Assembly: GCF_964204645.1 (NCBI RefSeq)
Contig: NC_134027.1
Location: 20,918,560-20,982,559, forward strand
Direction of reading: 5' to 3'
DNA length: 64,000 bases
Source: Tubulanus polymorphus
Lineage: Eukaryota > Animalia > Nemertea
Made by a program: the position numbers and the translations under genes. This document shows positions 8,881-63,239 of this stretch, piece by piece. Positions within the stretch are counted from its first letter, which is position 1, and every line of letters begins with the position of its first letter. Under the pieces are notes generated by a model, which saw nothing but the letters and a program-made list of their open reading frames with translations, was not told where the DNA came from and searched no databases.

Positions 8881-8901
8881 GCCGTGTTGAATCGAATTCG
8901 A

Positions 8902-14546: not shown

Positions 14547-15488
14547 TGGTATGATCATTTTATAATGTATGAATTTTATGCGGCACTGAAGATCTGAACC
14601 CGTGGATGCAGCAGGTAGCGGATAACAAACAATAATTTCTAAGCCAATTACGATCACTCCACTGGTTTTAGTAAGTGAGTTAACTGCTTTTAACCGGCAG
14701 CAGTGCCTCGTAGGCTACAGTAAGTTGGCTTTTTTATTTACTATCGTCTGTTACATTTTAGTGACCCGGAAGCAGTAACTCGTGGAGTATTAACTGAAAA
14801 TAGTGACTAAAGTCAGTGGCTTTGCCAGCAGACCCATGCGCCCTCTATGAAAAGTATGAGAAATACAAAAATTTGGTAAATGACCCTGTGCATTATTAGT
14901 TCCAGAATGCATTTACAATGGAAACCATGCCCAAGCAATAAAAGACGTCGAGATCTACCACTTGGCACATTTTCAGGACGATACATACAGTAACGACGTA
15001 CAGTAACGACAGAGCAGTCGGTACGAAAATTCGGTATTATTATATATAAGGTAATGCAAAGGTCCATGTGTTAAGGTTACCCTGTGTTACATTGATGCAC
15101 AGTGGCGAGGCTAATTGAACTAACCAATGGGCACTCCATTTCTCCATTTTTTCCATTTCCCTGCTTTTCGATGCATTTATAATTGAATGGAATAAATTAC
15201 CGTGTATTTTTCTTATTGACGCATGGATTGTGTACCTTTTTCTCTTACATGTAGGCTACAAAAGTATACATGCTGTATTTATTTCATTTTGTAATGATTC
15301 TGAATCATTTCGTGACAGTGATGCGTTATTCTTGAATGAAATTACTTTACGTAATACAGTGAATGGTATCCAGTTACACGGATTCTAGAGATGAGCGTGA
15401 CGTTCGATGTCGTGTAGAAGAGATAAAATATGCGTAAAGCTAAAGCTTAGCTGTTTTTCCGGTGTTACAGTTTTTGTAGATAGTGAAG

Positions 15489-40855: not shown

Positions 40856-40907
40856 CTAGAACGTACGGTAGTTGTGTTCTTCCCGTTCACGTCTCGTATC
40901 ATACGTA

Positions 40908-41027
40908 AGTAATTGGGAAAGTAGGCTTTCAGATCAGAGTACGAAGTACGAGACACCACTCATCACCACAAGTAATTTTTTTCCTAACACTCATCACCAC
41001 AAGTAATTTTTTTTCCTAATAAATGGG
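40908..41027 (+). repeat. Left terminal inverted repeat (120 bp)
   Basis: Exact reverse complement of 57225-57344, including T-run lengths. Contains two tandem CACTCATCACCACAAGTAAT(T)nCCTAA units and the ATG of the first ORF. Confidence 0.97.
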
Positions 41028-41349
41028 AGATAGAAAAGCATTCTTAGCAACAATAAATAACAGAATAAAACCAGCAAAAAAACAATTTGAAATAAAAAAG
41101 TTAGTTGATGTTACAAAAGAAATTGAACATAAAATATTGAAATTAGAAAAGATAAAAACTAAATATGGAGAGAAAGTATCAGCTAATTTAAGCTACTGTA
41201 ATGTTAGTACATCGCGAGAATTTAAAGTGTTTTTACCTGATAAATGGGTTTCATTGAGTACGGAGGAATTGAAAGATTTAGTAGGATTTAAAATAATATA
41301 TCATGGGAAAAATGAAGACGGTCATCATGATTTAGAAATTGTTGATTAA
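41023..41349 (+). CDS. Polinton small basic protein of unknown function (108 aa)
   Basis: Starts at TAAATG inside the TIR. Lys-rich, no motif recognised. Confidence 0.75.
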   Translation: MGDRKAFLATINNRIKPAKKQFEIKKLVDVTKEIEHKILKLEKIKTKYGEKVSANLSYCNVSTSREFKVFLPDKWVSLSTEELKDLVGFKIIYHGKNEDGHHDLEIVD

Positions 41350-41528
41350 ATTTAAAAAAAAATAAATTAATAGAAATAATGAATATCTAGAATCCGAAAT
41401 GACTTATCTGGACAATTTAATTGCTCCACATAGATGGTGCCATAAACAGCACCCACACAGTGATAGACAAAAGTAGTGAGATATTCAATTAATTAAAAAA
41501 AATTATTTTTTTGCTTTTTTCTAAAATA

Positions 41529-41897
41529 TTAATCCATTTTTTTTATTATCAATTTTGGAATTTCAGAAGTATTTTCATTTTTGATAGCAGTTGTTTCAGA
41601 ATTATTACTATCATGAATTTTATTTGATTTCTTATACCAATTACACCCAATCAAAATGAATACAATTACAAATCCAACTGTAAAATATAGATATTTATCA
41701 AATATTCTACTATCAGAAGGAGTAGAAATAACAATATTTTCACCATTTTTATTAACATTTTTATTACTTATTTTTTCTTTTACAGCTTTTTTATATTCTT
41801 GTGATTTAATTCCTAATTGTCGAGACCATTCAATTTGTTTCTGAGTTCTCGGTTTTTTCTTCACAGTTAATTCCTTCACTTCTTTCACTTCGCTCAT
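41529..41897 (-). CDS. Polinton single-pass membrane protein (122 aa)
   Basis: TAAATG start, basic N-terminus, hydrophobic YLYFTVGFVIVFILIGC. Confidence 0.75.
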   Translation of the reverse strand: MSEVKEVKELTVKKKPRTQKQIEWSRQLGIKSQEYKKAVKEKISNKNVNKNGENIVISTPSDSRIFDKYLYFTVGFVIVFILIGCNWYKKSNKIHDSNNSETTAIKNENTSEIPKLIIKKMD

Positions 41898-42435
41898 TTA
41901 TTATAGAAATATTTTTACTTTCAATATTTGAAAATGTTATAACCCCGGTTGATAATAATGTCATAAATCCACCTAATTGAAATGATAAATATCCAATCCA
42001 CTTATTTAATTCAGTCATAACTAAATAATCATTTTTTAAATCGGAATATAATCTATTTTCATCTTCAATTGGTAGTATATAATTACATAATTTACTATAA
42101 CCTTTTACTACATTTTCTGATATCGCGTCATTAATTTTAGCTGTTCTCGCGGCTTCATAAATCTTAAATAATCTAATAATTTCAACTGATTTCATTGTAT
42201 CTAATTCATTATAAGTTAAATTTTTATCAACAAATTTTTTACATTTTCCAGATGCTATTAATATTTCTAATTGATGTTTGCAATAAAGATAATATTCATA
42301 ATTATTATTTGTTGTAACATTATTTAAAGCACCATCATCTGGAGGTAATTTTGTTTCTGTTATTCCTAAATCATCTAAAGTTTTTTCAATTGGAACATCA
42401 CCATTTTTAGATTTTATTTTCTTTTCACCTCCCAT
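41830..42435 (-). CDS. Polinton protein of unknown function (201 aa), hydrophobic C-terminal segment
   Basis: TAAATG start; WIGYLSFQLGGFMTLLSTGVITF near the C-terminus. Confidence 0.75.
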   Translation of the reverse strand: MGGEKKIKSKNGDVPIEKTLDDLGITETKLPPDDGALNNVTTNNNYEYYLYCKHQLEILIASGKCKKFVDKNLTYNELDTMKSVEIIRLFKIYEAARTAKINDAISENVVKGYSKLCNYILPIEDENRLYSDLKNDYLVMTELNKWIGYLSFQLGGFMTLLSTGVITFSNIESKNISIINERSERSEGINCEEKTENSETN

Positions 42436-42466
42436 TTATAAAACAAATAAATTAGTTGTGTTGTTG

Positions 42467-42714
42467 CAACTAGAATTCAACTAGAATGTAATTAGAATTC
42501 AACTAGATTAACAAGCTAGTTGAAATATTGTTGTTTTTGTTTATTTCTTGTTAAATCTAGTTGATTTTTGTTCCAACTACTAACAACTAGAATTCAACTA
42601 GAATGTAACTAGAATTAAACTAGATTAACAAGCTAGTTAAAATTTGATTTTTGTTACAACTACTAATAACTAGAATTCAACTAGAATTCAACTAGATTAA
42701 CAAACTAATTGAAT
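42467..42714. repeat. Internal non-coding array of 11-bp (CAACTAGAATT) units in three blocks
   Basis: Blocks start near 42467, 42584 and 42668. Each ends in AACTAGATTAACAA(G/A)CTA. Confidence 0.9.
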
Positions 42715-43323
42715 TTAAATAAATTCATATTTAAATGGGTGTTGTAATCTAAATAGTAATTTTGATCTTTTAATATTTTTCAACTTATCCATATATTCAT
42801 TATGTAAATCATGTGGAATAATGTCATTTTCCTCAAGTGCATTTTTCATTGATTTTCTATCTTTATTGTAGAATAAAACTAGAAATCTAATGTTTTCTCT
42901 AAAGTCTTTAACAATTGAATTATATTTTTGATTTAAAACCCAAGTTGTTATCCCAAAATGTCTCCCAGAGAAAGCTAAATAACATAACTCACTTTCTCTA
43001 ATTTTAGAATCATGTAAATTTGCGCAATCATCTATGATAAATAATGTATTTGATCCTTTATAAATATCAATTGCTATTTTTATACAATTATCTAAATTTT
43101 CTTTTATTGTTTTAGGATCTAATATAATAAATTTATTATTCCTAGTAATATTTCTATCATAAGTTTGATTAAATTCATATGTTGGACAAAATAATACTAT
43201 ATTATCAAAATAGTTTTTGTAAACAGTTTCTAATAAATTTAATATAAAATAAGTTTTTCCACAATTTGTTACGCCAGAAATTAACATATTATGAGGCTCA
43301 AATATGAATAATTCCTTATTCAT
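42715..43323 (-). CDS. A32/FtsK-HerA-like genome packaging ATPase
   Basis: Walker A SGVTNCGKT, Walker B LFIIDD, GRH arginine motif and downstream Q, as in A32-family ATPases. Confidence 0.9.
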   Translation of the reverse strand: MNKELFIFEPHNMLISGVTNCGKTYFILNLLETVYKNYFDNIVLFCPTYEFNQTYDRNITRNNKFIILDPKTIKENLDNCIKIAIDIYKGSNTLFIIDDCANLHDSKIRESELCYLAFSGRHFGITTWVLNQKYNSIVKDFRENIRFLVLFYNKDRKSMKNALEENDIIPHDLHNEYMDKLKNIKRSKLLFRLQHPFKYEFI

Positions 43324-44451
43324 TTATATATTTTTAATTTTACTTGATAATATCCATTCATTGAATTTATCTGGCCATCCAACCCATTTTACTAAAGAAT
43401 ATTTTTTTCTTTTAACAGTTTTTGTTTTTAGTACTTTTTCAATTTTATATTCTTGTTCTAGATTTTCAGTAGTTAAACTTAATTCTTCTTCATAAAAATA
43501 TCCATCAACTTCTTCACCATCTAAATCTTCTAATTTATAGACATATGGTTTTGTTGTTATTACCTTTTTTATTTTATATATTTCTCTAGTAAAATTTCGA
43601 TCGTATCCTTTGTCAAATATCTTTTTATACTTAGAAATTCTAACATTTTGACCAACTTTAAATTTAGGTTCACCAAAATCATCAACAAGAAATGCTCCAT
43701 ATAAATTATTCCAAACAATTTCAGCATTTTCAGGTTTTCTAGCATCAATAGGTTTCATTCCAATAGAAGAATGATAAGAATTATTATATCCTTCTATAAA
43801 TTTTGGTAAAACATCAATCCATTTATAAGTATTATTTGCTGTAAAATATTTCCACATTCTTGTTCTTAATGTTCTATTAAATCGTTCAACAACTGCTGCT
43901 TTTTTATCTGATTTTGTTGAAAAATATTTAATATTATGAAAATCTAAAAGTCCATGAACTAATGAATTATCAAATTCTTTTCCATCATCAAATTGTATTT
44001 TTTCTGGTTTTAGTTTACCACCTGAAAGAAATTTTCTTAAAACATGTGATGTTTGTGCAGCATCTTTTCTATAAAGTGGGAAGCTCCATACATAACGACT
44101 AAAAATATCAATTATATTCAATATCCACCAATAATCATTATTATCTTTTTTAAGATTTTTCATATCAATTAAATCTCCTTGCCACTGTTGATCTACATAA
44201 CTTACCATAGTTTTACGAGTTTTATATTTTCTAACAATTTTTTTATGTGTTGTATATGTTGGTTGTTCTAACATAAATTCATTTATATCTTTATATTTAA
44301 CTAAATTTTGTGGGATTATCTTATCTAATTTATCTTGTTTTACTTTACGCCATATATTTTTAGTAGAAGAATAAGCAACCGAACTCTCAGGGTTGTAATA
44401 TAAATTTCTTAAATATTGTTCTTTAGTATTAGGAGTTTTTTTACCACTCAT
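43324..44451 (-). CDS. Retroviral-like (rve) DDE integrase with C-terminal chromodomain
   Basis: WQGDL, IDIFSRY, IQFDDGKEF, VVERFNRTL catalytic motifs. The C-terminus YKIEKVL...LVKWVGWPDKFNEWI is chromodomain-like. Confidence 0.95.
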   Translation of the reverse strand: MSGKKTPNTKEQYLRNLYYNPESSVAYSSTKNIWRKVKQDKLDKIIPQNLVKYKDINEFMLEQPTYTTHKKIVRKYKTRKTMVSYVDQQWQGDLIDMKNLKKDNNDYWWILNIIDIFSRYVWSFPLYRKDAAQTSHVLRKFLSGGKLKPEKIQFDDGKEFDNSLVHGLLDFHNIKYFSTKSDKKAAVVERFNRTLRTRMWKYFTANNTYKWIDVLPKFIEGYNNSYHSSIGMKPIDARKPENAEIVWNNLYGAFLVDDFGEPKFKVGQNVRISKYKKIFDKGYDRNFTREIYKIKKVITTKPYVYKLEDLDGEEVDGYFYEEELSLTTENLEQEYKIEKVLKTKTVKRKKYSLVKWVGWPDKFNEWILSSKIKNI

Positions 44452-44481
44452 TTATATATCCTTAATTTTAACTTTATATTT

Positions 44482-45729
44482 CTAATATTGAATACTATCT
44501 AATTGTGAATTTACAATATTTAATTGTGCGTCAGATATAATATAAATGTGCATTTTAAAATTTTTGATTCCTTTATTCTTTTTCATGAATAATTGTATTC
44601 CATCTTTAGTGTTCTGTAGTTTTTTTCCAGAACCATGTAATAAGTTATCTTCAGTTGTTCTAAAATCTAACCATAATGCATATTTATTACCGGTATAATA
44701 ATCAATTTGATTAATGTTACAATTTTCAGATGATTTCACTTTTTCATTCATAAAATGTTTTCTAATTTCTGGCCATTGATCAATCATTCTCATTCCTTGA
44801 CAAAATATTTTATTCGCTATTCCTTCGATAGTTATTTCTACTTTTGTTATTTCAGGATTATAATAATTATCAACATTTATTGCACCATTAGAATATGTTG
44901 CAATAGTAAAAAATATTAATATACCTTTAATAGATCTTCTAGGAAAGTTAATATTCTCATTAATTATTTCATCATTTGCATTAATAGTTACAGTTTTAAA
45001 TTTATCAATATAATCATATAATAATGAAAATCCTTGATTGTATTGAGTTTGAATTGTGCTAGCAATATTTTCATTAGTTATTGTGTTATATTCTAAACAT
45101 ATATTCGATAATTTATAACTCATATCTTTAACAACGCTAGATAATACAATTTCATTTACAGGAGCAAATGTTATCTCAAATATAATATCTTCTTGAATTG
45201 CGTATTTATATAAAGGTGCATTATTATTTATCAATTCAAAGTCTAATGGAATTTTATATTTGCTTCCATAAATCTTTTTAATCAAATTATCTGTGGCACG
45301 AGTTACTACTGCATTATTGGCTTCAGATCTTAATTTATTATGGTTTTCCGATTGGATGCCTTGAAATATCATATTATTTCTATTTTCTTTAGTTAACCAT
45401 AAATCTTTATAATGCATAAATAAATTATAATCATCTAATGAGAAAACTGTTTCTGGACCAATCTTTATTGTTAACTTTTTAATCAAATATCTTCCAACAT
45501 TATCAACAACATAATTGTTATCATGGCCAGTTACTTTTATATCGGCTGATAAATAAATACTGTTTGGAACATAAAAAGTATTTTGTGTTAATCGAGGGAT
45601 TCTAACATATAAAGTTTCATCGGGATTAATATTTGAAGGGTTATGAGTAATTATATGATGTGATCTTTCTGCTTTAAAAGCATTAGATATTCTATGATTC
45701 TTCGAAGGACTTATATAACTCCCACTCAT
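44482..45729 (-). CDS. Probable double jelly-roll major capsid protein (415 aa)
   Basis: Size, beta-strand-like alternation, N-terminal NPSNINPDETLYVRIP / LIKKLTIKIG / YKIPLDF pattern resembling Polinton/PLV capsids, and genomic context. The fold is inferred, not computed. Confidence 0.7.
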   Translation of the reverse strand: MSGSYISPSKNHRISNAFKAERSHHIITHNPSNINPDETLYVRIPRLTQNTFYVPNSIYLSADIKVTGHDNNYVVDNVGRYLIKKLTIKIGPETVFSLDDYNLFMHYKDLWLTKENRNNMIFQGIQSENHNKLRSEANNAVVTRATDNLIKKIYGSKYKIPLDFELINNNAPLYKYAIQEDIIFEITFAPVNEIVLSSVVKDMSYKLSNICLEYNTITNENIASTIQTQYNQGFSLLYDYIDKFKTVTINANDEIINENINFPRRSIKGILIFFTIATYSNGAINVDNYYNPEITKVEITIEGIANKIFCQGMRMIDQWPEIRKHFMNEKVKSSENCNINQIDYYTGNKYALWLDFRTTEDNLLHGSGKKLQNTKDGIQLFMKKNKGIKNFKMHIYIISDAQLNIVNSQLDSIQY

Positions 45730-45773
45730 TTATTTAACAAAAAAATTAATTATTTATTTTTTGATATCATGGT

Positions 45774-47210
45774 TTACTTGATATTTTTTGATATCATATT
45801 TACTAAACCAAAAATAATAGCACTTACAACTGTAATTAAAAATAAAATAATATGTTCAGCAGCAAAGTTGATAATGTTTCCTGCAGATTTCAATATAAAA
45901 CCAACAATTGAAGCAATAACTCCTGGTAAAGCTGCAGCAGATTTCTTTGATAGTTCCCATAAATATTTTGCTAATTTCTTTAAACCATCCTTAACTTTAT
46001 CTTGTATAGAATTATTACCTGGAGGTTTATCTGGTTTGTTAGGAGTGGGAGTAGGAGTAGATTTCAAAGCATTTGATATAGCTAAACCTATTGTTGTAAA
46101 TAACATAGTAACAGATGTTAGAATTGAAAGAATTGTTATTCCTTCTAATTTAAATAATAATTTTATTCTGTCTTTCAATGATATTTTAGAATCTGGTTTT
46201 ATCAACAAATCTTTAAAAATAACTTTTAATCTATTAATATTATAATCATATGATTTTAACAATAATTTAATTTCTTCTTTTTGTAATTCTATGTTATATT
46301 CTAAATCATCTTTTTCTTTTTCTAAACGTAATTCTTTTTGCCTATATTCTATTTCATCAATTACTTGATGATCTAAATCAGACTTTAGTTGTTCTATTTC
46401 TTTATTTTTATCAGTTAATTCTTTTTCTAAAGTTCTAATTTTAAAATCTCTTATACTTTTATTATGTGCAATTTTATCAGATGCAAGTCTTATACTAATA
46501 ATTTCTCTAATTGCTTTATCAGAAAATATATTTAAATCTTCTAATTGTTGATTTGTTGCATCAAGTAATCCATTTGGTAAAAGTTTTACAGTTTGAACTT
46601 TATTTGATTTAAGTTTACTATTTTTGGAAGTTATATTCTGTTCAGAAGTTGTTTCTGTTTCTAAATTTTCATTAATTATCTTAAAAAATTTAGCATTTCT
46701 TTGTTTAAATTCTTTTATATTATAATCTCTTTCTTCTTGTGTAACATCAATTATAGCATCATTTTTTATTTTCTTAATTCTAGATTGTTCTAATAAATTA
46801 AAAGTTGATTGTGTTATTATTTTATCACTATTTTTAAGATTTGAAATCTTAAAATAATAGTCGCCTTTCAATTTCCAATAATATTCACCATTTAAAAATT
46901 TTAAATCTTCTACTAAATGATCCATACCTTTATTTGTTATATTGAAACCAGATTTTTCTAATATTGGTTTAAATTTATGAATAATTTCATTATAATTGTA
47001 TTCTTTTTCTGTTATTTCTGGTACTTCATTTTCAATACTTATCTTTGAACGTGCTTTGTCAATAAATTGGGGTGTAGTTAAATTAGAATTATATGCTGAT
47101 TCATTACCATCATTAAAACTTGTTTCATCAAAATCAGGTGGTTGTTCATCAGTTATACCAGGTTCATCAAAAGGATCCATTCCAATATCTTCTACACCTT
47201 CTACATCCAT
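45774..47210 (-). CDS. Coiled-coil protein with C-terminal membrane segments (478 aa)
   Basis: Acidic N-terminus, EK-rich heptad region, hydrophobic GITILSILTSVTMLFTTIGLAI and IILFLITVVSAIIFGLV. Confidence 0.8.
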   Translation of the reverse strand: MDVEGVEDIGMDPFDEPGITDEQPPDFDETSFNDGNESAYNSNLTTPQFIDKARSKISIENEVPEITEKEYNYNEIIHKFKPILEKSGFNITNKGMDHLVEDLKFLNGEYYWKLKGDYYFKISNLKNSDKIITQSTFNLLEQSRIKKIKNDAIIDVTQEERDYNIKEFKQRNAKFFKIINENLETETTSEQNITSKNSKLKSNKVQTVKLLPNGLLDATNQQLEDLNIFSDKAIREIISIRLASDKIAHNKSIRDFKIRTLEKELTDKNKEIEQLKSDLDHQVIDEIEYRQKELRLEKEKDDLEYNIELQKEEIKLLLKSYDYNINRLKVIFKDLLIKPDSKISLKDRIKLLFKLEGITILSILTSVTMLFTTIGLAISNALKSTPTPTPNKPDKPPGNNSIQDKVKDGLKKLAKYLWELSKKSAAALPGVIASIVGFILKSAGNIINFAAEHIILFLITVVSAIIFGLVNMISKNIK

Positions 47211-47226
47211 TTATATAATAATAAAA

Positions 47227-48528
47227 TTAAAATTTAAAATATAATATTCCTCCGATTACAATTCCTATACAAGTTATAGCTAATTTAGTATTTTCATGGG
47301 ATTTATTATCATCATTTAGTTTAATTATATCATGTTGAATATTATCAGTTCTATTATTTTCTGATGTATTATAATCTTTTATTTTAGAATCATTATTTAA
47401 TTTAATATTCTTAGTTTTAGTTTCTGTTGATTGAATGTGTTTTTTATTTTTTTCACCTTCCATTAATTTTGGAGCAGTAATAATCTTTTTATTTATATCA
47501 TTCAATCCAAATGAATTATTTATTGTTGCAGTTTTAATTAGATTATTATAACCAATTATATTTCCCATCTTCAATACTAAATCATTAGAAATAATTAATA
47601 GATTAGGGCCTATACAATAATTAAGTCTTACATGAGATTTATCTAAATATTTTTGATATCTTATAATGTTTTCTGGAATCGATCTATTTTTATCATTATG
47701 TATGGAATCTTCAAATAAAACTTTAAACTGTTTCTGCGCATCGAATGAAGTGTTATCATTTCCAATTATTGGGGATCTTGTTTCAACTTGAGCGCCTAAA
47801 ATACATATCAAATAAATTCTAATAGATTGATTTATTCTTTGTATACCTGATTTTGTAAAACCTTCACCATTTTCTAAAATGAAATTAACCCAACCATTAT
47901 TATTATCAATTTTATAATTATGATAAGCTCCAATTCTATGCATATAATCAATTCTTTTTATTTCATACTGTTCACCGACACCTTGCAATTTACCATGCGC
48001 TCTAAAATCGGAATTAATATTTATATTAAATTCATTACATATTTTATAAAACTTGGATATATTAATATTATTATCCAATTCTTTAAAATATTTAGACCCG
48101 GGTAAAGGACATTCTAATTCATTTAATATTATTCTGATTTGAAAATATGTGTGAAATCTAAATATTGTGTGAATTAATTTTAAATCAGAATACTTCAAAT
48201 TTTTATCTAAGTTATTTAAATGATCATTCCAACTAATTCCACATCCTGTTGTTGCACAATAAACAGCAAAATTTAATTGATTCTGCCAATATTTCATATT
48301 AGATTTTACTTTATATATATGATATTCATCTCGAGTAAAAGTAACTTCATATGTATTAAATATATTTTCCATTTTAGAAATAAAAAACTGTGATTCATTA
48401 ACATAAATTTCTAAATTAGTTAATGAATTTAAAACTATATTTTTATATGTAATATTTTTCTTAAAATCTATTGCTGGAATATTATATTTAATTGATTTAT
48501 TATATTGGAAAGCTTTTGGAAACCCCAT
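47227..48528 (-). CDS. Polinton protein of unknown function with C-terminal membrane anchor (433 aa)
   Basis: TAAATG start, WQNQLNFAVYCATTGCG core, terminal LAITCIGIVIGGILYF. Confidence 0.8.
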   Translation of the reverse strand: MGFPKAFQYNKSIKYNIPAIDFKKNITYKNIVLNSLTNLEIYVNESQFFISKMENIFNTYEVTFTRDEYHIYKVKSNMKYWQNQLNFAVYCATTGCGISWNDHLNNLDKNLKYSDLKLIHTIFRFHTYFQIRIILNELECPLPGSKYFKELDNNINISKFYKICNEFNININSDFRAHGKLQGVGEQYEIKRIDYMHRIGAYHNYKIDNNNGWVNFILENGEGFTKSGIQRINQSIRIYLICILGAQVETRSPIIGNDNTSFDAQKQFKVLFEDSIHNDKNRSIPENIIRYQKYLDKSHVRLNYCIGPNLLIISNDLVLKMGNIIGYNNLIKTATINNSFGLNDINKKIITAPKLMEGEKNKKHIQSTETKTKNIKLNNDSKIKDYNTSENNRTDNIQHDIIKLNDDNKSHENTKLAITCIGIVIGGILYFKF

Positions 48529-48544
48529 TTATATAACTAAAAAA

Positions 48545-48979
48545 TTAATAATTTATTAATTCTTTTAATAATTTATCTTGTTCTTCAACTGTTATATGAC
48601 CATTTAAACTTATTATATAATCTAGTGTGTTCTTTAATTTATTAATTTCTTTTATATTAGTTTTAATTTTTTCTTTATTACTTTTTATATTTAATTTTGA
48701 ACTTATACCAGTTAAAACACTTGAACTTAATCCTTACACACCAATTGATATAGCTAAAGGTGTTAATGGACTGAATATTGCTAGAAATGTTATTACAGAA
48801 CTAATTGTAACCGAACCACTTATAATCAAATAATATATAATTTTACTTTTTAAATATTTTTTCTTTTTTATCTTTAAGTCACTTTCAAATTCTAATATTT
48901 GTTTTTCTAAATATGTTTTTAATTTAGTTTTATTTATATCATGAGGAATAATATCAATACTATCAACTTTATCTTCCAT
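48545..48979 (-). pseudogene. Two-TM membrane protein gene with one in-frame TAA (48734-48736)
   Basis: The frame continues past the stop (GLSSSVLTGISSKL...) to TAA at 48545, which is the first triplet of the next gene's upstream motif. Confidence 0.75.
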
Positions 48980-48998
48980 TTATTTAGAATAAAAATTA

Positions 48999-49421
48999 CT
49001 AATTAGTAAACTTATAAGCAACAAATATAACAATAATAGTTCCACCTAAAATCCAAATTATTTCATATTTCTGTTGTTCTTTACTCGGGGTATAATAATC
49101 TGATAATTTAGGTTTGTATAGATTTAATTTTTCTTTATTTGTTACTGCGTTATATAAACTCATTGCATCATCAACTGATTGAAAATCTCTATGTGAAATC
49201 TTCTGATCATATAATTCTTTATTGATGTAATCCATATAGTTTTGTCTCTTTTCTCTATATTCTTCTGCAGCTTTATTGTATTTCTCTAACGCTAAGTTAT
49301 GTCTTCTTTGTTCTCCTAATGAACTATTTTTATCAATATGTTTAAATAAATAACCACCACCAGTAAATGCTAAAGCGTTAACAATTGCCGATCCTATAAT
49401 AGTTATAATTGCAGAAGCCAT
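48999..49421 (-). CDS. Polinton membrane protein (140 aa), hydrophobic at both ends
   Basis: MASAIITIIGSAIVNALAFTGGGYLF ... IIWILGGTIIVIFVAY; TAAATG start. Confidence 0.8.
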   Translation of the reverse strand: MASAIITIIGSAIVNALAFTGGGYLFKHIDKNSSLGEQRRHNLALEKYNKAAEEYREKRQNYMDYINKELYDQKISHRDFQSVDDAMSLYNAVTNKEKLNLYKPKLSDYYTPSKEQQKYEIIWILGGTIIVIFVAYKFTN

Positions 49422-49445
49422 TTATTTAACAAAAAAATTATGCAT

Positions 49446-49667
49446 TTATATGGGAGGAATATATTTTTGTTTTTCCAAATAATCAATAGTTAAATTGGAT
49501 AAAGTAACTGCTAATGTTAATTTTAGAATATCATTTATATCAAATCTATCAACATTAACACTTCCCATTTTGAATACTTTTTTTAATACCATTGAATAAC
49601 CAACAGTTCCAACTGATAGTAATGCGCCATTATATAATCCAGTTATTATCCACTTATTATCACTCAT
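49446..49667 (-). CDS. Small hydrophobic Polinton protein (73 aa)
   Basis: TAAATG start overlapping the upstream stop codon; two hydrophobic stretches. Confidence 0.7.
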   Translation of the reverse strand: MSDNKWIITGLYNGALLSVGTVGYSMVLKKVFKMGSVNVDRFDINDILKLTLAVTLSNLTIDYLEKQKYIPPI

Positions 49668-50027
49668 TTATTTATCAAAAAAATTACTATCATCAAAATA
49701 TTTAGTTAACTTATTTATGATTAATTCAACATTTATTTCATTACTAGTTTTATGATTATCATATATTTCGGTTAATATGTTTTTAATATCATCGATGATA
49801 AAATCTTCATCTAATTCATAAAATCTTAAAGATTCTCTAATTAAATTAGTAATCTTTTCTACATTTAAAATTTCTTTATCTATTGTTGTTTCATACTCAA
49901 ATGTTGTTTCATTAGAAAATGTAATATTTTTGATATGTGTTATTACATCATTAATGTTAAATTTCATTTCTTTCTCACGTTTAAAATCAAATCCAAAACA
50001 TATACTCGGTCCAACAGTTATATTCAT
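49668..50027 (-). CDS. Polinton protein of unknown function (119 aa)
   Basis: TAAATG start with the full upstream motif; acidic, no motif recognised. Confidence 0.7.
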   Translation of the reverse strand: MNITVGPSICFGFDFKREKEMKFNINDVITHIKNITFSNETTFEYETTIDKEILNVEKITNLIRESLRFYELDEDFIIDDIKNILTEIYDNHKTSNEINVELIINKLTKYFDDSNFFDK

Positions 50028-50043
50028 TTATAAAGGTGAAAAA

Positions 50044-50802
50044 TTACTCTTTACATCTTATAACTAATTCATAAATTACAGGAAAGTTATTCAAATCAAT
50101 TAAATAACCATTATGATTTCTTATTTCTAATTTAAAATTATTGAAATGTGGAATACAAGGTTTGAAATCACATTCGGTTAAATTATAATTTATTTGCGTT
50201 CCAAATTGTTTGACATTTTTTAATGGTAAAATATTTAATAAACCAGAATTACAAATTGTATCTTTAGTTGCTTCAAATGTTTTTGTAGGATCGATTAAAT
50301 TGCAATAAATATAAAAGTGTGTAAAAGGTATTATATTTGAGTTACCTTCTGCGTATGCTGTAACGGTATCTGGTGCAATTCCTAACAGTTTAGCTAAAGG
50401 TTTTCTTATTGTAAATTTAAATTGTTCGTCATTAGCTAACCTAATCTTTATTTTATTAGAACTAGCACTTTTTAAAATTCTAATACTAAATCCGGAATCA
50501 CTTCCTAATTTAGCTCGAGCTTTTCTATTAATTTCTTGTGTTAATGTATCTAAATTATATAATCCTGGTTTTAAATATATAAAAAACCATTTATTCCTTT
50601 TTTTGTAAAAGATTGAAAAAATTAAATGTTCTAGACTTTTATCCGATATATTATAAAAAGAATTACATAAACTTATATTAACTAATTTTAAATCTACACA
50701 ATTCTTGAATTCTCTATCTAATTGTACTAGTAAATTATGAGATTTATAATTTGTAAGTTTTCTAGAATCAATAAATATTCTGTATTCTTTTAATTCTACC
50801 AT
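50044..50802 (-). CDS. Probable minor capsid (penton, single jelly-roll) protein (252 aa)
   Basis: IFIDS start, SFYNI, PGLYN, FYIYCNLI and terminal IRNHNGYLIDLNN..V.YEL pattern typical of Polinton/virophage pentons. Confidence 0.7.
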   Translation of the reverse strand: MVELKEYRIFIDSRKLTNYKSHNLLVQLDREFKNCVDLKLVNISLCNSFYNISDKSLEHLIFSIFYKKRNKWFFIYLKPGLYNLDTLTQEINRKARAKLGSDSGFSIRILKSASSNKIKIRLANDEQFKFTIRKPLAKLLGIAPDTVTAYAEGNSNIIPFTHFYIYCNLIDPTKTFEATKDTICNSGLLNILPLKNVKQFGTQINYNLTECDFKPCIPHFNNFKLEIRNHNGYLIDLNNFPVIYELVIRCKE

Positions 50803-50870
50803 TATTTATAACATAAAAAAATTACCGCTCATCACTAAAAATTAATTTTAATAAAATTTTTCCTTAATAA

Positions 50871-52169
50871 ATGGATGAGAAGATAGCATGCGAAATTTGT
50901 GGTGAACTTCTAAGAAAAAGTAATAAGGCTCGACATATGAAAAAACATGATGAAAATTATAAACCCCCTAAAATAAACTGTCCAAAATGTAATAAATTAT
51001 TCTCAAGAAATTATGTTAAAAAACATTCAGAGAAGTGTAGAATTAATGGTGCAACGGCTAATGTTGATAGTAATTCTGCTGAAGTTGAACCTGAAGTTAT
51101 TTGGAAAAGACCTTTCTTATTCTATGATAAGGATAATATAAAAGATCATTTCTGTGAGCCTTGTCAAGTAAAATATAGCCCTGAAAATATAGAAGATTGG
51201 GAGAATCATCAATTTCGTAAAGCACATATAGATAAAATTTCTAATAAATTTGAAACTGAATTCAATGAAAGAAAAAATAATTTATTAGAAAAAATAAAAT
51301 ATGAGAAAACGTTACCAGATAATAAAGAAACAGTTGAAAAGTTAGAAAAACAATATAATGAATTAACAAGAAAAACATATTATTGTAAATATTGTAAATT
51401 GATTATTACAACAAGTAATTCAAATCTACATAATAGAACAATAAAACATAAAGAAAACGTAAGAAAATACCAAGAGCTTAATGAAGATCTATTACCAAGA
51501 AATTATAAACAAAAATGCCCACAATGTAGTTATGCGACCTTAAGGCAAGAAGGTACTGTGTTATTTTGTGTTGAATGTGGATGGCAAAAGAATTTATGGG
51601 GTGAAGAAAAAACTAGAGATTTTCTCATAGAACCAAAATTAAATTATCTAGATGAAATTTTTAAAATATTTTCTATAGAAGATCATACACCAGAATATAT
51701 GCAATGGCTTGAAAAAATGAAAATAATAGAAAATAAAAATGGTGAAATAACTAAAAAAGATATTATAAAAACAATTATTCCACCAACATTTAACACAAAA
51801 CAAAAGAAAATGTATTTATATTTATTATTTAACGATTATTATGAAAAACCTAAATTAACAGAAGAAGATATGGAAAATATAAAAAAAATATTTAAACAAA
51901 TATTAATGTATCATTTGGAAAATAGAATAACAGATTCAATAAATTATGAATTCTTTTTAAATAAGATTGTAAATTATTTAAACCTAGATATTATAATTCC
52001 ATTTGATGAATTAACAAACAAAAAGAAACAAAGAGAGCGAGATGAAATGTGGAACAAGATAGAACTTTATTTAAATGAGAAAAATGGAATGGAAGAAGAA
52101 CCTGAACAATTAAATGAAAATGAAGAAGCCAATAGTGATTTCGAGTTTGATGATATAGATCCATTTTAA
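50871..52169 (+). CDS. Zinc-finger protein with C-terminal poxvirus/NCLDV late transcription factor VLTF3-like domain (432 aa)
   Basis: Four N-terminal C2H2-like fingers and a Zn ribbon CPQC...CVECG. The tail SINYEFFLNKIVNYL...LTNKKKQRERDEMWNKI resembles VLTF3 C-termini. Confidence 0.7.
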   Translation: MDEKIACEICGELLRKSNKARHMKKHDENYKPPKINCPKCNKLFSRNYVKKHSEKCRINGATANVDSNSAEVEPEVIWKRPFLFYDKDNIKDHFCEPCQVKYSPENIEDWENHQFRKAHIDKISNKFETEFNERKNNLLEKIKYEKTLPDNKETVEKLEKQYNELTRKTYYCKYCKLIITTSNSNLHNRTIKHKENVRKYQELNEDLLPRNYKQKCPQCSYATLRQEGTVLFCVECGWQKNLWGEEKTRDFLIEPKLNYLDEIFKIFSIEDHTPEYMQWLEKMKIIENKNGEITKKDIIKTIIPPTFNTKQKKMYLYLLFNDYYEKPKLTEEDMENIKKIFKQILMYHLENRITDSINYEFFLNKIVNYLNLDIIIPFDELTNKKKQRERDEMWNKIELYLNEKNGMEEEPEQLNENEEANSDFEFDDIDPF

Positions 52170-55100
52170 TAACCATAAGGTAATGTTTTTATACCATCAT
52201 CTGAAATATGCCTTTTATCATCAAATGGATTTAAACTAGTTTTTTCAACTTCATTAATGTACATCTCATGATCTTCTGATCTTAAACAATTCATCTTGTG
52301 TTTCATTACAATTGATTTATATAAACACTTTATATAATCTTGAAATTCTATATGTTTATCAACCACATGTTTTGTTATTCCTTTTAACTTTTTAGCTTCA
52401 TGATCTTTTGTTCTGTAACTATACATTTTACTTCTTATCCCAACAAATTCAATCATTTCATCACCTCCTAATTCATCTTTAAATTTACCAGGAATCTTTT
52501 TATTATCATTGCTAAATAGTTCATGATCTTTAGGATAATTGCTAAAATCAAAATGATGTTTTAATGTTTTTAAGTCTTTTGTTATGTCATTTGTCTTGAT
52601 TTTTAGTATGTAACTGTCAGTATTTTTTTGGATTAATGGGAACCCAGAATTGAATGTTCCATCATCTGTTGATAAATCATAAACATAGTCAGTTGGGTTA
52701 TATATTTCAAATAAATCTTTAACTTCTTCTGTTAATTCTTTTTCTACATGCCTTAAATTAAAACAATTTGGTTTAGATTTAATTAATTCTATATTCATAT
52801 TAAATCCTAATGAACTGCATAACACATTTAACCCACTTATTGCACATTTTCCTTTCTGTGCAAAGGTTATCGTTTTATCCTTTATAAATTTTTTAGTACC
52901 ATCGGCTGCGTAGAACCCAATGAAGAACCATTTTCTAAGATTATATTCTGAATTTAATATATAATCTGGTACTATTTTTTCTTTAGTTGAAGTATTACTT
53001 TTCACTATTGCATGAATATAGAATTCATCATTATATTTTATAGCAAAATCTTTAGGATTATTTACAAGTATTCTATAAACCGCGGATGATTTCATAACAT
53101 CCATGATTCTAAATGTTTTATGTGAATAAACTTCTTCACAGAATTTCTTAATTCTTTCTAATAATTTTAAGTCTTGATTGCATAAATACCAACAATATTT
53201 ATTACCCCAAACATATTTATACACACCTGCTGAACCATCACCCATGAAAAATCCTTTGATAAAATATTCTTTTTCTTCCAATGTTTCGGGTTCTATATTA
53301 TAAATATTATCAATTATTTCATCAAATGACATATGATTCATTCTTGGGAAAAATCTTTTATGTAATAATTCATCTCCAATTTTTATATCAGTTGGTTTTA
53401 TTTCATCACCATTTCGTTTAATTAAACTGTGGTCTTCAGTAACATCTACAAATCCTAATTTAGTTCTAACTCTATAGATTTTCTTATTTGTTTTATGTCT
53501 AATAATATTCTTTAATTTTTTCCATCCATTTCTTGTCCAAACATCTATTAAACCATTTATTTGTATTAGTTCTTTTTCACCATATGAAAAATAAGATTTA
53601 TTTTGATTAGGAATTATTTCTGAAATTCTTCTAATTAATATTTGGTTATTGTATTTTAATAATATTGGGGTGTCAGCTGTTACAGAATCGAAGTATAGAA
53701 TTTCTATATGTTTTTCCCCAAACAATGGTTGTAATACATTGTAATAAAAATCATACATTAATAATTTTGATATTTCTAAAACTGTTGAACCAATGAAAAT
53801 GGGTTTATTAAATTTCATTGACGTTCTTTTTAATTTTACTGCTGTTAAATAATCTTCAAATCTTTTATTTCCTAAATGTCTAGGACTTGATTGTAGGTGT
53901 CTCAATCGTTCAGAATTATTTACTAATTCAATATCATTTCTATTTCTAATATTTTCACATGTTTTACCATAAAAACTATTGTTCATTAATTTGAAGAAAT
54001 CTTTTTCAAAATCTGTTTTTGATATGGTTCTCTGTTGAGTATTGAAATCTATATATTTTTCTAACCACTTTGATTGATTAAATTCAATATATCTATGTAC
54101 TTTCTTTAATTTCATTCCTTGTTTTAGATAAAATTTTAACATTCTATAATGAACAATATAATTGTATTTATTATTTTGAGTAAGTATTAATTTTTCTGTA
54201 AAAACATGATCTTTCGGTTTTATTTTCTTCTGGTATTCACTTAAATAACTATCATCTACAGTTAAATGTTCTGGGCAATAAGGTAAGTTTCTTGTTTTAA
54301 ACTTTATGTTATCAGGATATTCTAAATCAACTACAAAGAAATAACCAATTGGTGCTTCATCTTCTAAACTCATAATTGCGCTTTCCCAATTAGTTTTATC
54401 ATCATTTTCAACTTCTGTTAATATAAAATTTTTATATGGTTGAGGTTGCATCATTGCCCAACCATATAAATTATTGGCGTCAATATATAATAATTTATAT
54501 TCATCATTTGCTTTAAAATACCTATCTCCCATAACACCACTAATTCCACCTCTAATTGATTTTTCAAATAATAAAACCATATCTGGTTCTTTTAATAAAT
54601 CTAATTCTACATTTGTATATTTTAAACCACATTGCCAGGTTAAACCAGGACTTGAATAACAATAACAAGGATCAACATTAAAATGATTCAAATTAACTTC
54701 TCTAAATTTTTCAAATATGTCAGCCAATATCATAACATCTGATTTTAAATATAAATCAACTAATTCGCCATGATTTTTCATCTTAAAATGGTTCCAAATA
54801 TTTAATGTTCTATTAAACACTTCGTCTTTCACATACTCCTCTTTTAATTTATCATAAAATTGATCTTTTAATAATTCTGTTACATTAAAATCATCATGTG
54901 TTTTATAAAATGAATAAGGAATTGCGCCTTTATATCTCAATAATTTAAAATCTTGTTCATTTGGATAATAATATCGAGTTATAACAAAATCATTATCAAC
55001 TAAACTTTTTGATAAATTATCTAATGAACTTGCTAGAAATCTATAAGAATCTAAAAATCTAATGCAACCAAATTGAAATGAAATATAATTTTCAGATGTT

Positions 55101-57229
55101 TTAGCTAATAGTTTAAAATAATATTTTCTTACATTTGCTTCATTCATAGCATTATATTCTTCTATTTCTTGATTAATTGCGCCCAATTTTCCTGATAATT
55201 GTTTTATAAATAGATGGGTATCATAGCCTGATAAATTATGAAATAATATTGGTACGAAATTAACTTTCTTAGCTTGTAAATTGCAATCTTCATGAGCAGC
55301 TCCACGATATTTTGAATTCAAATGATCATGATCTCTAACTCTTTTATCAAATGAATAAAAACGTTTTTCACAATAACAACAATGAGTTGCATAATTAAAA
55401 TCAATTTCATCTTCTTTTGTCATAACTATTCTTTTATTTTTGTTTAATAATTTTGTAAAATCACTTTCTAATTCAATCATTTTATCACAAAAATCATTAA
55501 CTACATTTTCACCTCTAAAAGAAATATATTGACTTTCATATAATTCGGGATAATTTGATTTGATGTAAATTCCATAAGCAGCAGCTCTTTGATGAACTTT
55601 TTTTAATTGTATTTATAATTGGCGGGTCTTGTATTGTGTCTTCATTTAATTCATTTCCTTTATCCATTGATTTTAATAATTGCTTTTTGTTATATATTTC
55701 TTTTCTATCTTGATCAGTTAATTCTTTATTCAACGATTCAAAATCCCCATAAATTACAAATGGAACAATATTTTTAAATTTATGATTAGTAAATTTCAAT
55801 TTATAATCTTTTTCTGTTGGCATTATTAATTTACAAAAATCTTTATTATCACATAATTCTTTATGTTTTAATAATGTATTCTCAGTCATAAATTTGGATA
55901 AACATTTTCTACATAGATAAATTTTATCATGATGATCACTTTCTGTTCTAAAGAATAAATCAATTTGTTTTAACCACATATAATGTTCATTTTCATCTTT
56001 TTTGTAATATAACAAATCTATAGCATTTTCATCATCATAATATTCTGTTAAATATAAAGCTTCCAATGTATAATCTTTAATATTTTCACCTTTTGTCTTT
56101 GGTAATTGCATTAATTCGAATACATTTATTTTTAAATTATTAACTTTTTCTATTTTAGGAATCATTTTTATAGTTACTGGATATTGATCAATTTTATATA
56201 ATGTTTCATATTTCCGATAATCTGTTATTCTACAAACATTTTCCTGTGTTGGATGTAAACAACTAATAATTGACCATAGAAAACATTTATAATCTTCATT
56301 TTGAACATTTATTACTGCTTTTGTTGTAAACGGTAATTTGATATAACTTGATGCTTTCATATCCTTTTCTGTTGTAAAGTTTGAATCATTTTTAAACATT
56401 TTATTACTTTTTGATGTTTTATTCCTTTTTGTATTATAAACATTTAAATCTAAATATATGATTTCATTCAATGTTAAGCCAGAACCCTCAAAATATCTTT
56501 CTTCAATATGACGTTTAAATTCATTTAATATTTTTTCTAACTTCTCTTTTATTTGTATTTTTGAAATTATTTCTTCAGAGTGTGTTTGAATATTATAATC
56601 CATTTTTTCTTCTGACTTTATAAAACTTACTTTCCCAGAGATACTAATTTTTGGATATTCAACATCTGTTATCAAATCTAGTATTTTTTCTATTATTTCA
56701 TTAAATTTACTATAATCTTCTATTGTTGTGTCTTAAAAAATCTAAATATAATAGCTGCAGGACCAATTTTACTATGTAATGTTTCTAAGATTTCAATTGT
56801 ATCTTTTATTTCTAGTGAATCAATATAATTTCTAATATTTTCCATGTAAGGTTTATTTGAAATGGATTTAGTTTTTGAAGTTGATTCTTTTACTTGTTGA
56901 GGTTTATCATCAAAATAATCTATTCCTAAAACATTATTTCTCAAATTTTGATGGTGTTTTTCTGTTTCGAGATGTTTATTATAATTCCTTTTTGTTATAA
57001 ATTCATCACAAACTTCACATTTTATTTCATCCACATTCATATTTTCTAATCGTTCTTTTCTTTCAATGGAATTTTCTGGAGTTTCAAAATCTATAACATT
57101 TTTTATATGATTTGAAGATTTTTCATGTTTAGATTTATTAGATTTATCGATGTATTTTTTACAATATTGACAATAATATTGATTTTTATTGATATTATTG
57201 TTTTCTAGTTGGTGTTCATTCTCCCCCAT
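52166..57229 (-). pseudogene. Protein-primed family B DNA polymerase (pPolB) gene, broken into three ORFs by two single-base frameshifts, intein-containing
   Basis: ExoI VIYGDFES (ORF 55536-56675), ExoII FHNLSGYD, ExoIII YLKSDV, PolA YIDANNLYG, PolB FKLMNNSFYGK, PolC LYFD/TDS. EndoVII-like CCYC...VRDHDH..GAAHEDCN insert. The frames join at ~56732 and ~55600. Confidence 0.93.
52622..53686 (-). mobile_element. Intein (355 aa) with LAGLIDADG homing endonuclease inserted in pPolB motif C
   Basis: YFD|SVTADTPILL...VDVTEDHSL (block B)...FIKGFFMGDG...FFIGFYAADG (two LAGLIDADG motifs)...VYDLST (block F)...IQKN|TDS. Confidence 0.93.
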
Positions 57230-57344
57230 TTATTAGGAAAAAAAATTACTTGTGGTGATGAGTGTTAGGAAAAAAATTACTTGTGGTGATGAGTGGTGTC
57301 TCGTACTTCGTACTCTGATCTGAAAGCCTACTTTCCCAATTACT
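57225..57344 (-). repeat. Right terminal inverted repeat (120 bp)
   Basis: Exact inverse of 40908-41027. Supplies the ATG of the polymerase N-terminal ORF. Confidence 0.97.
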
Positions 57345-57740
57345 TACGTACGCCAAGATTCGCGAGATTTGCTATATTGATGACTTTTCCTTATCTTGTA
57401 CCCGTCTTGCTGATGCATTTCTTTCCGACCAGTTTTTCGGATGTTACTATGAAGTATTTGACCAATTAACATATTTCATCGTTATCGCCATTAATTACCT
57501 TTACATTGTACCTTTAACGTTGATTGTTATTTCAAATTCTGTTGTCGTTCAGTTATTCAAGGGTTCGAAAATGGTTTCGACTGATACGAAAACCACAAAA
57601 TCGAAACGTACAACAATAATGCTTGTAACAGTTTCACTCGCATTTGAAAAATGATTCCCGTAGTTTTAAGTAGGAGCTTGGCACTAAGCTGCTGACCAGT
57701 AGCCAACCGCCAAAGGCATGTAGTTCAGTTAGTTCAGTTA

Positions 57741-62134: not shown

Positions 62135-63025
62135 TTACAAGAACAAATCATCTAAATATTCCTCAAATTCGTCGTCCTTTGATTTTTCAACGTCCAATTT
62201 CACCGGTCCTTCCCAAATCGAAGTCGACGCCTGCGAGTCGACTGTTTTTACGTTTTTCTCGGCAGATTTCTCGCCCACAGACTGTTTTTCGGTCGTCCCC
62301 GTCGATCGACGACTCGTCGACGGACCTTTGACGACTTCGCGTTTTCGACTGTTGTAATTCAACTTATACGAACACCGCGGGCACAAACGTAATTTCACCA
62401 ACGCGTTTTTCTTTTCGTTCGCTTCTACGTACGCGAAGTTCACTTCCCAACTGCGCAGCCCTTCGCTTTCCGCGCACTTCTTATTCCCGCAAACGAACTG
62501 CCCCTTGCCGGCAATCAGCTCCTTCTCGATTCTCCAACGCAACGCGATTTTATTCTCTTTGTACCGACTCAAATCGGCAATGCAATATTCCTTGAACAAC
62601 TTATCGTAATATTTCTTCGCCAGTTTTTTCTCCCACGTCAACGAATCGTCGTCCCGTTCGTCGTCGTCGTCCCAGAGAAATCGATGGTTCTCTCTGATGA
62701 TGTCCAAGTCGGTTTTATCGCGCGACGAGTCGCGTCCGAAGTCGCTCTTGCTACCGTTGTAGTACATCAGATAATTGTTCACCATCATCTTGTGACGGGA
62801 GTAAGCGTCCATGCTCAGAACGTGGAACCGTCGTATACGCGCTTCTTCCCGGTCGCTTTCCGATTCGTGCAGTCGTTTCGAAGGCGGTACCGCCGCGACG
62901 TCAGACGATTTCGCGCGATCGTCTCCGGCGAGGTCGCGGCGTCGTTTTCGCTTATTTTCGACTTCGGAATCGTTTTCGAATTCCGAGCCGTAATCACCGC
63001 CTTGGTGCAGCGTAACGAAATCCAT
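62135..63025 (-). CDS. FRA10AC1: FRA10AC1 homologue (spliceosome-associated protein), single coding exon, ~296 aa
   Basis: AYSRHK, DLDIIRENHRFLW, WEKKLAKKYYDKLFKEYCIADLSRYKENK.ALRWR, GKGQFVCGNKKC, LRSWEVNFAY.E..EKKNALVKLRLC..CSYKLN, FEEYLDDLFL. A splice acceptor lies 9 nt upstream of the ATG. Confidence 0.93.
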   Translation of the reverse strand: MDFVTLHQGGDYGSEFENDSEVENKRKRRRDLAGDDRAKSSDVAAVPPSKRLHESESDREEARIRRFHVLSMDAYSRHKMMVNNYLMYYNGSKSDFGRDSSRDKTDLDIIRENHRFLWDDDDERDDDSLTWEKKLAKKYYDKLFKEYCIADLSRYKENKIALRWRIEKELIAGKGQFVCGNKKCAESEGLRSWEVNFAYVEANEKKNALVKLRLCPRCSYKLNYNSRKREVVKGPSTSRRSTGTTEKQSVGEKSAEKNVKTVDSQASTSIWEGPVKLDVEKSKDDEFEEYLDDLFL

Positions 63026-63239
63026 TTTCTCGATCTGAAAATATAAAGATAAGTTAAAACTTCGTAATAATCTGATGATCAAATTTTTGGTATTTGCTAA
63101 TTGGTAGGTACATCAAGTTTCAATGATGACATCAACTGAAAACTTAAACTGGATAGGGGATCATTCATTCATTACACACGCATTAGGGGAGGGGGGAGGG
63201 GTAAGTGCAATTACTAACTGTAATGATTATTGTATATGA

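Follow-up and report, generated by a model that had tools for sequence, protein, structure and literature searches.

What transcribes the genes of an integrated viral element in which no RNA polymerase gene is detected? The question is raised by a 64,000-nucleotide stretch of the genome of the nemertean Tubulanus polymorphus (assembly GCF_964204645.1, contig NC_134027.1, forward-strand positions 20,918,560 to 20,982,559; this whole stretch is the window, and positions below are its own), which contains an element of 16,437 bp at 40908-57344. A first-pass annotation made from the sequence alone had described the element as a complete Polinton-like virus (PLV) and proposed that its genes are read by the transcription system of a poxvirus or another nucleocytoplasmic large DNA virus (NCLDV). 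We judge it slightly on the probable side, from its start motif, gene content and coding DNA, that the element works like a provirophage and is transcribed by the machinery of a cytoplasmic large DNA virus that infects the same cell. The sequence case for the proposal was strengthened by a two-part motif shared by a whole clade, by a VLTF3 gene, by an intein and by the treatment of AATAAA, and the copy in the window proved to be defective.

The annotation had noted that nearly all open reading frames (ORFs) of the element start at TAAATG. We found the motif at 14 of the 17 ORFs and at 14 of the 15 true gene starts, since two of the exceptions were internal pieces of a broken protein-primed DNA polymerase (pPolB) gene; the third, the probable penton gene starting at 50802, had TAAAT 3 nt further upstream. 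The background frequency was 5-7% in shuffles and at non-start ATGs. TAAATG occurred at 34 of 631 non-start ATGs of the element (p = 1e-14), at 215 of 3202 ORFs after the element DNA was shuffled, at 3 of 59 short spurious ORFs and at 44 of 1781 ATGs in the flanks. Three other readings of the motif were rejected: a poly(A) signal, because the motif also heads genes without an upstream gene on the same strand; a TATA box, because one placed at the ATG would begin transcripts downstream of the ATG; and stop-start coupling, because 12 of the 14 starts were uncoupled from a stop codon (two abut an upstream stop).

The motif had a fixed layout, with AA at -18/-17, a tract of A and T only up to a T at -12, a 7-nt spacer tolerant of G and C, and then ATAAATG. 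In the element, A-18 was present at 14 of 14 starts and T-12 at 11 of 14, as compared to 18 and 12 of the 34 non-start TAAATG sites (p = 1e-3 and 7e-3). When relatives were included the figures were 59 and 65 of 71 versus 36 and 39 of 118, the homologous genes in this larger set not being independent. In the late promoters of vaccinia and mpox viruses TAAAT(G) spans the start codon and a T about 10 nt upstream is conserved, and their intermediate promoters have an AT-rich core 15-19 nt upstream (PMC11980589; here and below, papers are cited for the accessible part of their text). The T peak of the element at -12 from the ATG lies 9 nt before the T of TAAAT and 10 before its first A, and the element motif agrees with both descriptions to within one base. 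We infer that the motif acts as a promoter, that transcription begins within TAAAT and that slippage gives the transcripts a 5' poly(A) leader. Only one start class was found: pPolB, the integrase and the VLTF3 gene all carried the motif, with no separate early class. With VLTF3 and pPolB on the same motif and no early class, the element is left without an obvious way to start itself. Both terminal genes begin within the terminal inverted repeats (TIRs), and thus the TIR itself is a promoter carrier. The promoter there lies in a 31-bp unit that is present twice and serves pPolB at one end and a small ORF at the other.

Relatives of the element were collected by a search with its major capsid protein (MCP), which gave 22 metagenome loci and three loci from metagenome-assembled genomes (MAGs). 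Counting ORFs of at least 100 aa, and with groups that were drawn after the motif had been seen, TAAATG headed 64 of 80 ORFs in the 16 clade loci (the window, L001-L014 and L017) versus 0 of 18 in five outside loci (L015, L016 and L023-L025). Five partial, degraded matches (L018-L022), left out of this count, had the motif at 0 of 18 ORFs. In the best 80 intein-bearing viral loci, which are of giant-virus type, it headed 50 of 550 ORFs, and 11 of 110 in the AT-rich ones. The MCP tree (123 sequences, 12 of the loci included, no named references) separated the motif-bearing loci from the outside loci with a support of 0.87-0.97. The motif was kept in relatives of 40% and 44% GC and through inversions and changes of gene order, and it also headed genes confined to a lineage, among them an HNH gene and one for a deoxynucleoside kinase. 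The motif marks a clade, independent of GC content. An entomopoxvirus-type locus (L026) had TAAATG at 10 of 21 ORF starts; its 232-kb contig, 18% GC and NAD ligase, MSV199 and NPH-I-like genes agree with what we take to be the features of Amsacta moorei entomopoxvirus. We give virtually no credence to a compositional artefact, in which AT richness and stop-start coupling would make TAA-ATG common. The element is indeed 76% AT and two starts do abut a stop, but the background rate, the AT-rich viral controls, the GC-richer relatives and the uncoupled starts refute it.

Some side observations concern these relatives. The deoxynucleoside kinase of the close relative L001 (10340-10981; Pfam dNK, E = 2e-31; TAAATG start) is a gene typical of large DNA viruses. 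The outside Mavericks L023 and L024 had a TAAA-ATG or AAA-ATG start context, perhaps an intermediate-type or ancestral motif of the wider group. Maverick contigs L023, L024, L025 and P0046 were found in prokaryote MAGs or assemblies (labeled Burkholderiales, Saprospiraceae, Iainarchaeum and Bartonella), most likely by contamination from a host or the environment. IMG/VR yielded no MCP relatives with three queries and none for the TIR, and GTDB yielded none with query A1.

A motif of this kind could also be a legacy of helper-dependent ancestors that survives, as a translation context or an AT-rich core promoter, in what is now an ordinary nuclear transposon or virus. The family is multicopy with diverged subfamilies, the motif includes TATAAA or AATAAA and has a purine at -1 and G at +4, and coral polintovirus genes are reported to be expressed (10.1101/2023.10.06.561300), all of which would suit such a history. 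We nevertheless consider it quite unlikely, since the -18/-12 spacing is fixed and the motif is kept by relatives of 40-44% GC and by genes confined to a lineage, which argues for continuing selection, and the TATA-box and poly(A)-signal readings fail for the reasons given above.

The second line of evidence was the C-terminal domain of a 432-aa protein, which had been called VLTF3-like. Pfam missed VLTF3 in the whole protein, while the C-terminal 199 aa alone scored 26-28 bits versus a cut-off of 25. In the ESM Atlas 27 of 30 matches were VLTF3 clusters, with a low recognition score. An exhaustive search of 1.84 billion proteins gave four matches, namely three element-type proteins and P0323, the sole non-element match, which was entomopoxvirus-like and 63% identical to a gene of L026. 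A fold predicted from the single sequence was unusable (pLDDT 49); a model from nine sequences reached a pLDDT of 82 and predicted a zinc ribbon plus a cyclin-like (Pox_VLTF3 helical) fold. Foldseek placed cowpox VLTF3 first, with three poxviruses in the top six and the VLTF3s of entomopoxviruses and other NCLDVs close behind. Foldseek on the PDB gave nothing under E 0.001, and the best PDB match, yeast TFIIB, was weak (Z 6.5, rmsd 4.5, 96 aligned). VLTF3 homologs were not found by word-index search, in GenBank phages or, with an alignment query, in IMG/VR. By these comparisons the VLTF3 domain is real, as the annotation had it, and its closest non-element matches are poxviral. VLTF3 relatives were seen in L001, and P0322 (VLTF3) and the MCP P0025 both came from 12,994-bp contigs, which suggests that VLTF3 is present in at least two subclades.

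The same gene raises the possibility of nuclear self-sufficiency, in which, after leaky first expression, the VLTF3 of the element would redirect the host's RNA polymerase II (Pol II) to TAAATG, much as is presumed for nuclear giant viruses that lack a polymerase. VLTF2 and VLTF3 are retained by ariadnaviruses, which are nuclear nucleocytoviricots without a polymerase (10.64898/2026.08.29.747986), and are also present in mriyaviruses and some PLVs (10.64898/2026.06.19.733378). The predicted fold with its weak match to yeast TFIIB, the presence of VLTF3 relatives in at least two subclades and a high copy number would all fit autonomy. We hold this to be unlikely, since the VLTF3 gene is on the same motif as its supposed targets and no partner for it, whether VLTF2, TBP-like or other, was detected. 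A start within TAAATG would, moreover, make a nearly leaderless Pol II mRNA.

The coding DNA bears on the same point. Measured against synonymous-codon shuffles, AATAAA was not depleted in the ORFs of the element (73 observed versus 65 expected), of its relatives (180 versus 189) or of L026 (128 versus 135), and was depleted in the outside Mavericks (8 versus 17, z -3.5, a small sample); the host and transposable-element ORFs used as a control were uninformative (6 versus 8). AATAAA is not avoided, and the coding DNA of the element accordingly looks cytoplasmic, as in cytoplasmic viruses. At about 5 per kb of element ORF, these signals should cut Pol II transcripts short. The poxvirus early terminator T5NT was rejected as a signal: it was depleted in the ORFs of the relatives (11 versus 43) and the window (9 versus 17), but other homopolymer runs were likewise depleted, and it showed no enrichment downstream of stop codons (23 of 82 sense versus 30 antisense). 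Clade ORFs in general avoid A and T homopolymer runs.

The pPolB carries a 355-aa intein with junctions YFD/S...N/TDS (53686-52622; slashes mark the junctions), at the site that the annotation had linked to giant viruses. All 34 PolB loci checked on viral contigs used the equivalent site (YGD/S). Among the 120 intein homologs listed, both junctions were at the same site in 105; the top five were pPolBs or fragments and most others were RNA-primed PolBs. Giant-virus MAGs made up 31 of the best 80 loci in IMG/VR, including the top five. The pPolB inteins formed one clade (0.996) nested among those of RNA-primed PolBs, and the sister of this clade was the intein of an RNA-primed, Pol-delta-like PolB. 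The same intein was seen in the pPolBs of other multicopy elements (the P0129 and P0132 clusters, which have 136 and 121 members, all on long contigs). Endonuclease insertions in pPolB have been ascribed to inteins (PMC11161782; 10.1101/2023.08.22.554363).

Under the reading that we prefer, expression by a co-infecting virus, an integrated copy would remain mostly unexpressed before the cell is infected by a helper, and the late factors or polymerase of the helper would then start expression of the element. The VLTF3 of the element, which is weakly TFIIB-like, may at that stage bias or boost the late machinery of the helper towards the element; pPolB would replicate the linear genome, packaging would follow, and the integrase would make new copies. 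Mavirus, whose late promoters are of the helper type, is silent until CroV infects (10.1101/068312). A single promoter class on all genes and no polymerase is the mavirus pattern. The element further shares with mavirus and the Cafeteria provirophages pPolB, the rve integrase, integration with TIRs and target-site duplications (TSDs), and a helper-type late promoter (here by motif match); mavirus differs in its protist host, its virophage-type capsid and protease, the motif of CroV, which is not TAAATG, and a dependence shown by experiment. We know of no VLTF3 in mavirus. A cysteine protease is a core gene of virophages (Virophaviricetes/Lavidaviridae), and among the 17 ORFs neither this maturation protease nor a capping enzyme was detected; an RNA polymerase, too, was not detected among them, as the annotation had stated, the single RpoA'' match falling in the intein. 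We do not place the element in the virophage family, although it would work like a provirophage. In Gezel-14T (PgVV), a PLV virophage, we find another non-lavidavirus that depends on a giant virus and carries that virus's promoter motif; it differs in its algal host, in an early AAAATTGA motif on five genes and in its other replication and integration genes (10.1101/2022.07.28.501842).

Poxvirus intermediate and late promoters and the yeast pGKL elements share with our element the TAAAT(G) initiator over the start codon and the upstream A/T element; they differ in having their own polymerase and an early class, where the element has nearly all genes in one class and no polymerase detected. This likeness invites a variant in which the helper is resident, a poxvirus-like polymerase coming from an endogenous giant virus or from a linear element in the cytoplasm, in the way that pGKL1 relies on pGKL2. 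We regard it as very unlikely: the element carries genes for an integrase and for probable capsid proteins, and has a late factor in place of the UCS early-type motif, and to our knowledge no resident pGKL2-like element exists in animals. What speaks for it is that the yeast linear elements have TIRs, a pPolB, about 74% AT and a TAAAN initiator that gives 5' poly(A) leaders by slippage (PMC6211774). A bolder form of the co-infection reading is that a clade of germ-line Mavericks in marine animals consists of true provirophages, which stay silent until an undescribed virus with poxvirus-like transcription infects the animal, are then reactivated by way of the TAAATG promoters and their own VLTF3, parasitize that virus, and act as an inherited antiviral defense of the host. 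We consider this form doubtful; the defense role in particular would be a further step beyond helper dependence.

The state of the copy and the size of its family also had to be weighed. The pPolB gene, starting at 57229, was split over three frames, being broken near 56730 and again near 55600, and its three pieces were collinear with the pPolB of an intact relative; the ORF starting at 48979 had a premature stop. In an independent DNA run, reads differing from this copy at the lesions were 594 of 604, 264 of 312 and 211 of 300. Since most reads differ at these sites, the lesions belong to this copy alone or to the assembly. Read depth in X7 had a median of 311 in the element versus 35-40 in the left flank, and in X1 single element contigs had 928-9,337 versus 26-28 for flank contigs. 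The family is multicopy, with tens to hundreds of copies, a range because depth lacks a single-copy calibration. It contains diverged subfamilies, and reads showed sister subfamilies with another outer TIR (691 loose ends at 40988).

Several points weigh against helper dependence. This copy is defective, with two pPolB frameshifts and a premature stop, and a family of tens to hundreds of copies must have entered the germ line again and again, which strict reliance on a helper would make harder. The outside control for the motif is small (18 ORFs on five fragments), and one outside Maverick, L024 (1-3992), has the related AAA-ATG context at all of its starts. The alignment behind the VLTF3 model included entomopoxvirus rows and may favor poxvirus matches; and since nuclear viruses without an RNA polymerase keep VLTF3, the gene does not imply a viral polymerase. 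The intein is patchy, L008 having an intein-free site, and its relationships indicate a record of past contact with a giant-virus-type polymerase gene, not of present dependence. The signals also disagree on the identity of the helper, VLTF3 pointing to poxvirus-like viruses and the intein to other giant viruses. A helper virus was not found, the host assembly not having been searched for helper markers. In corals a subgroup of polintoviruses carries VLTF3, and core genes of coral polintoviruses, which belong to different clades, are reported to be expressed in host transcriptomes with no helper named (10.1101/2023.10.06.561300). VLTF also appears on the map of MELD virus (PMC8502044). Both VLTF3-bearing animal polintoviruses and poxvirus-associated PLVs are thus already published. 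The latter, a precedent in favor of the reading preferred here, occur in entomopoxvirus occlusion bodies and are proposed poxvirus parasites, with one lineage forming a divergent branch of Maverick group 2 (PMC11296320). They differ from our element in their size of about 12 kb, insect hosts, a protease, and a tyrosine recombinase or no integrase; the accessible text of that paper has no occurrence of 'promoter', 'TAAAT', 'transcription factor' or 'intein'.

The clade-wide motif is real and sits on an element of a known kind. No description of TAAATG promoters in animal Mavericks was found in the literature covered, which left out supplements and most subscription papers, where the clade may already be catalogued. 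TAAATG itself was absent from the Maverick and polinton papers listed in one of the searches. The accessible parts of 10.1101/2024.03.23.586382, 10.64898/2026.10.13.758929, 10.1101/2025.04.19.649669 and PMC3671162 have nothing on the motif. No virions of animal Mavericks have been observed, according to the accessible text of 10.64898/2026.06.19.733378, and a clade-wide poxvirus-type promoter makes the question of how these elements are expressed and spread directly testable. If expression by a co-infecting virus is true, provirophage biology would reach beyond protists into the germ lines of animals, and these hosts would be predicted to have a large DNA virus that is not yet known, a missing helper of which the promoter would be the fingerprint. 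Autonomous lineages of Mavericks could then be told from helper-dependent ones by promoter type, with sequence as the only input.

The label of PLV stood as far as an integrated viral element is concerned, and in the narrow sense was not favored by the gene content. In narrow-sense PLVs (Aquintoviricetes) pPolB and rve are often replaced and the core genes are highly divergent; the element has pPolB and rve, plus MCP homologs in animal assemblies. With its TIRs, 6-bp TSD, length of 15-20 kb, pPolB (PF03175), rve integrase and A32 ATPase, it is a Maverick/Polinton (Polintoviricetes), and shares probable capsid genes as well with animal members of that class (Alpha-PolB adintoviruses, group 2). 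It differs from them in the uniform two-part TAAATG promoter, the lack of a detected protease, the giant-virus-type intein at motif C and the lack of AATAAA avoidance. Most members of group 1 have a cysteine maturation protease, in contrast to the element, where none was detected. We tentatively take it to be a group 2 element, or Alpha-PolB adintovirus, from gene content and general knowledge of these groups, the OTU motif being likewise assumed and the MCP tree holding no named references. Alpha and Beta PolB classes are described in PMC8502044, and group 2 is variable in gene content (10.64898/2026.06.19.733378). The MCP search gave 764 homologs, including some in animal assemblies, such as a bivalve protein (P0105) with 38% identity. 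A Capsid_N match was seen in 18 of 46 and in 12 of 22 homologs, with a best E of 2e-4 and all below the cut-off. Neither pPolB nor MCP had a sequence match in the PDB, and the MCP profiles retrieved no virophage capsids from PDB sequences. The penton label is one that we presume from a sequence signature.

Table. Features of the Tubulanus polymorphus element, in window coordinates
Feature	Coordinates	Strand	Evidence and remarks
Left TSD, TACGTA, palindromic	40902..40907	.	
Left TIR, 120 bp	40908..41027	+	two copies of 31-bp unit; promoter and start codon of first ORF
108-aa ORF, function unassigned	41023..41349	+	TAAATG start inside TIR; L001 homolog 74% identical
122-aa conserved ORF, hydrophobic segment	41529..41897	-	TAAATG start inside upstream gene
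201-aa conserved Maverick ORF	41830..42435	-	TAAATG; function unassigned
Non-coding repeat block, 11-bp units inside 117-bp duplication	42467..42696	.	between ATPase and 201-aa gene
A32-like packaging ATPase	42715..43323	-	Pox_A32 E 8e-13; TAAATG
rve integrase, C-terminal chromodomain	43324..44451	-	rve E 8e-9, Chromo E 2e-4; TAAATG
Probable major capsid protein, 415 aa	44482..45729	-	weak Capsid_N, E 0.042; TAAATG
478-aa coiled-coil protein, hydrophobic segments at C-terminus	45774..47210	-	TAAATG
433-aa ORF, kept also in Mavericks outside clade	47227..48528	-	TAAATG
Small hydrophobic ORF, shortened by premature stop in this copy	48734..48979	-	TAAATG
140-aa conserved ORF	48999..49421	-	TAAATG
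73-aa conserved hydrophobic ORF	49446..49667	-	TAAATG
119-aa ORF	49668..50027	-	TAAATG
Probable minor capsid (penton) protein	50044..50802	-	DUF5901 E 1e-3; TAAAT 3 nt further upstream
432-aa protein, N-terminal zinc fingers and C-terminal VLTF3 (poxvirus A2-like) domain at ~51504-52100	50871..52169	+	TAAATG
pPolB	52166..57229	-	TAAATG inside right TIR; PF03175 E 2e-18; three frames
Intein, 355 aa, LAGLIDADG endonuclease, PolB motif C	52622..53686	-	
Right TIR	57225..57344	-	pPolB promoter and start codon within
Right TSD, TACGTA	57345..57350	.	

The remaining statements about the element concerned its borders and composition. Perfect TIRs of 120 bp and the 6-bp TSD TACGTA at both ends were confirmed. 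Since TACGTA is palindromic and the inverted match extends 6 bp outward, the border between TIR and TSD was set by the terminus AGT, which we take to be the Polinton end. The element is thus complete as to its ends and not as to its content, given the three-frame pPolB and the small ORF with the premature stop. It was also, as described, very AT-rich and filled with intronless ORFs, with 23.7% GC versus about 38% in both flanks and 17 ORFs in the ORF listing. The CpG observed/expected ratio was 0.51 in the element versus 1.13 in the flanks, and codon use accounts for most of this. The repeat block at 42467-42696 was not seen in the four relatives compared (L001, L002, L003 and L005), and a comparison with Rfam gave no match.

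The flanks contained G-protein-coupled receptor (GPCR) genes, long interspersed nuclear elements (LINEs) and FRA10AC1, a content that agrees with an animal host. The GPCR genes, of the rhodopsin family, are intronless tandem duplicates at 3551-5447 and 15114-17021 of the window, 11.56 kb apart with LINE remnants between them. The FRA10AC1 reading frame at 62135-63112 on the minus strand (Pfam E = 3e-55) is intronless and may be a retrocopy.

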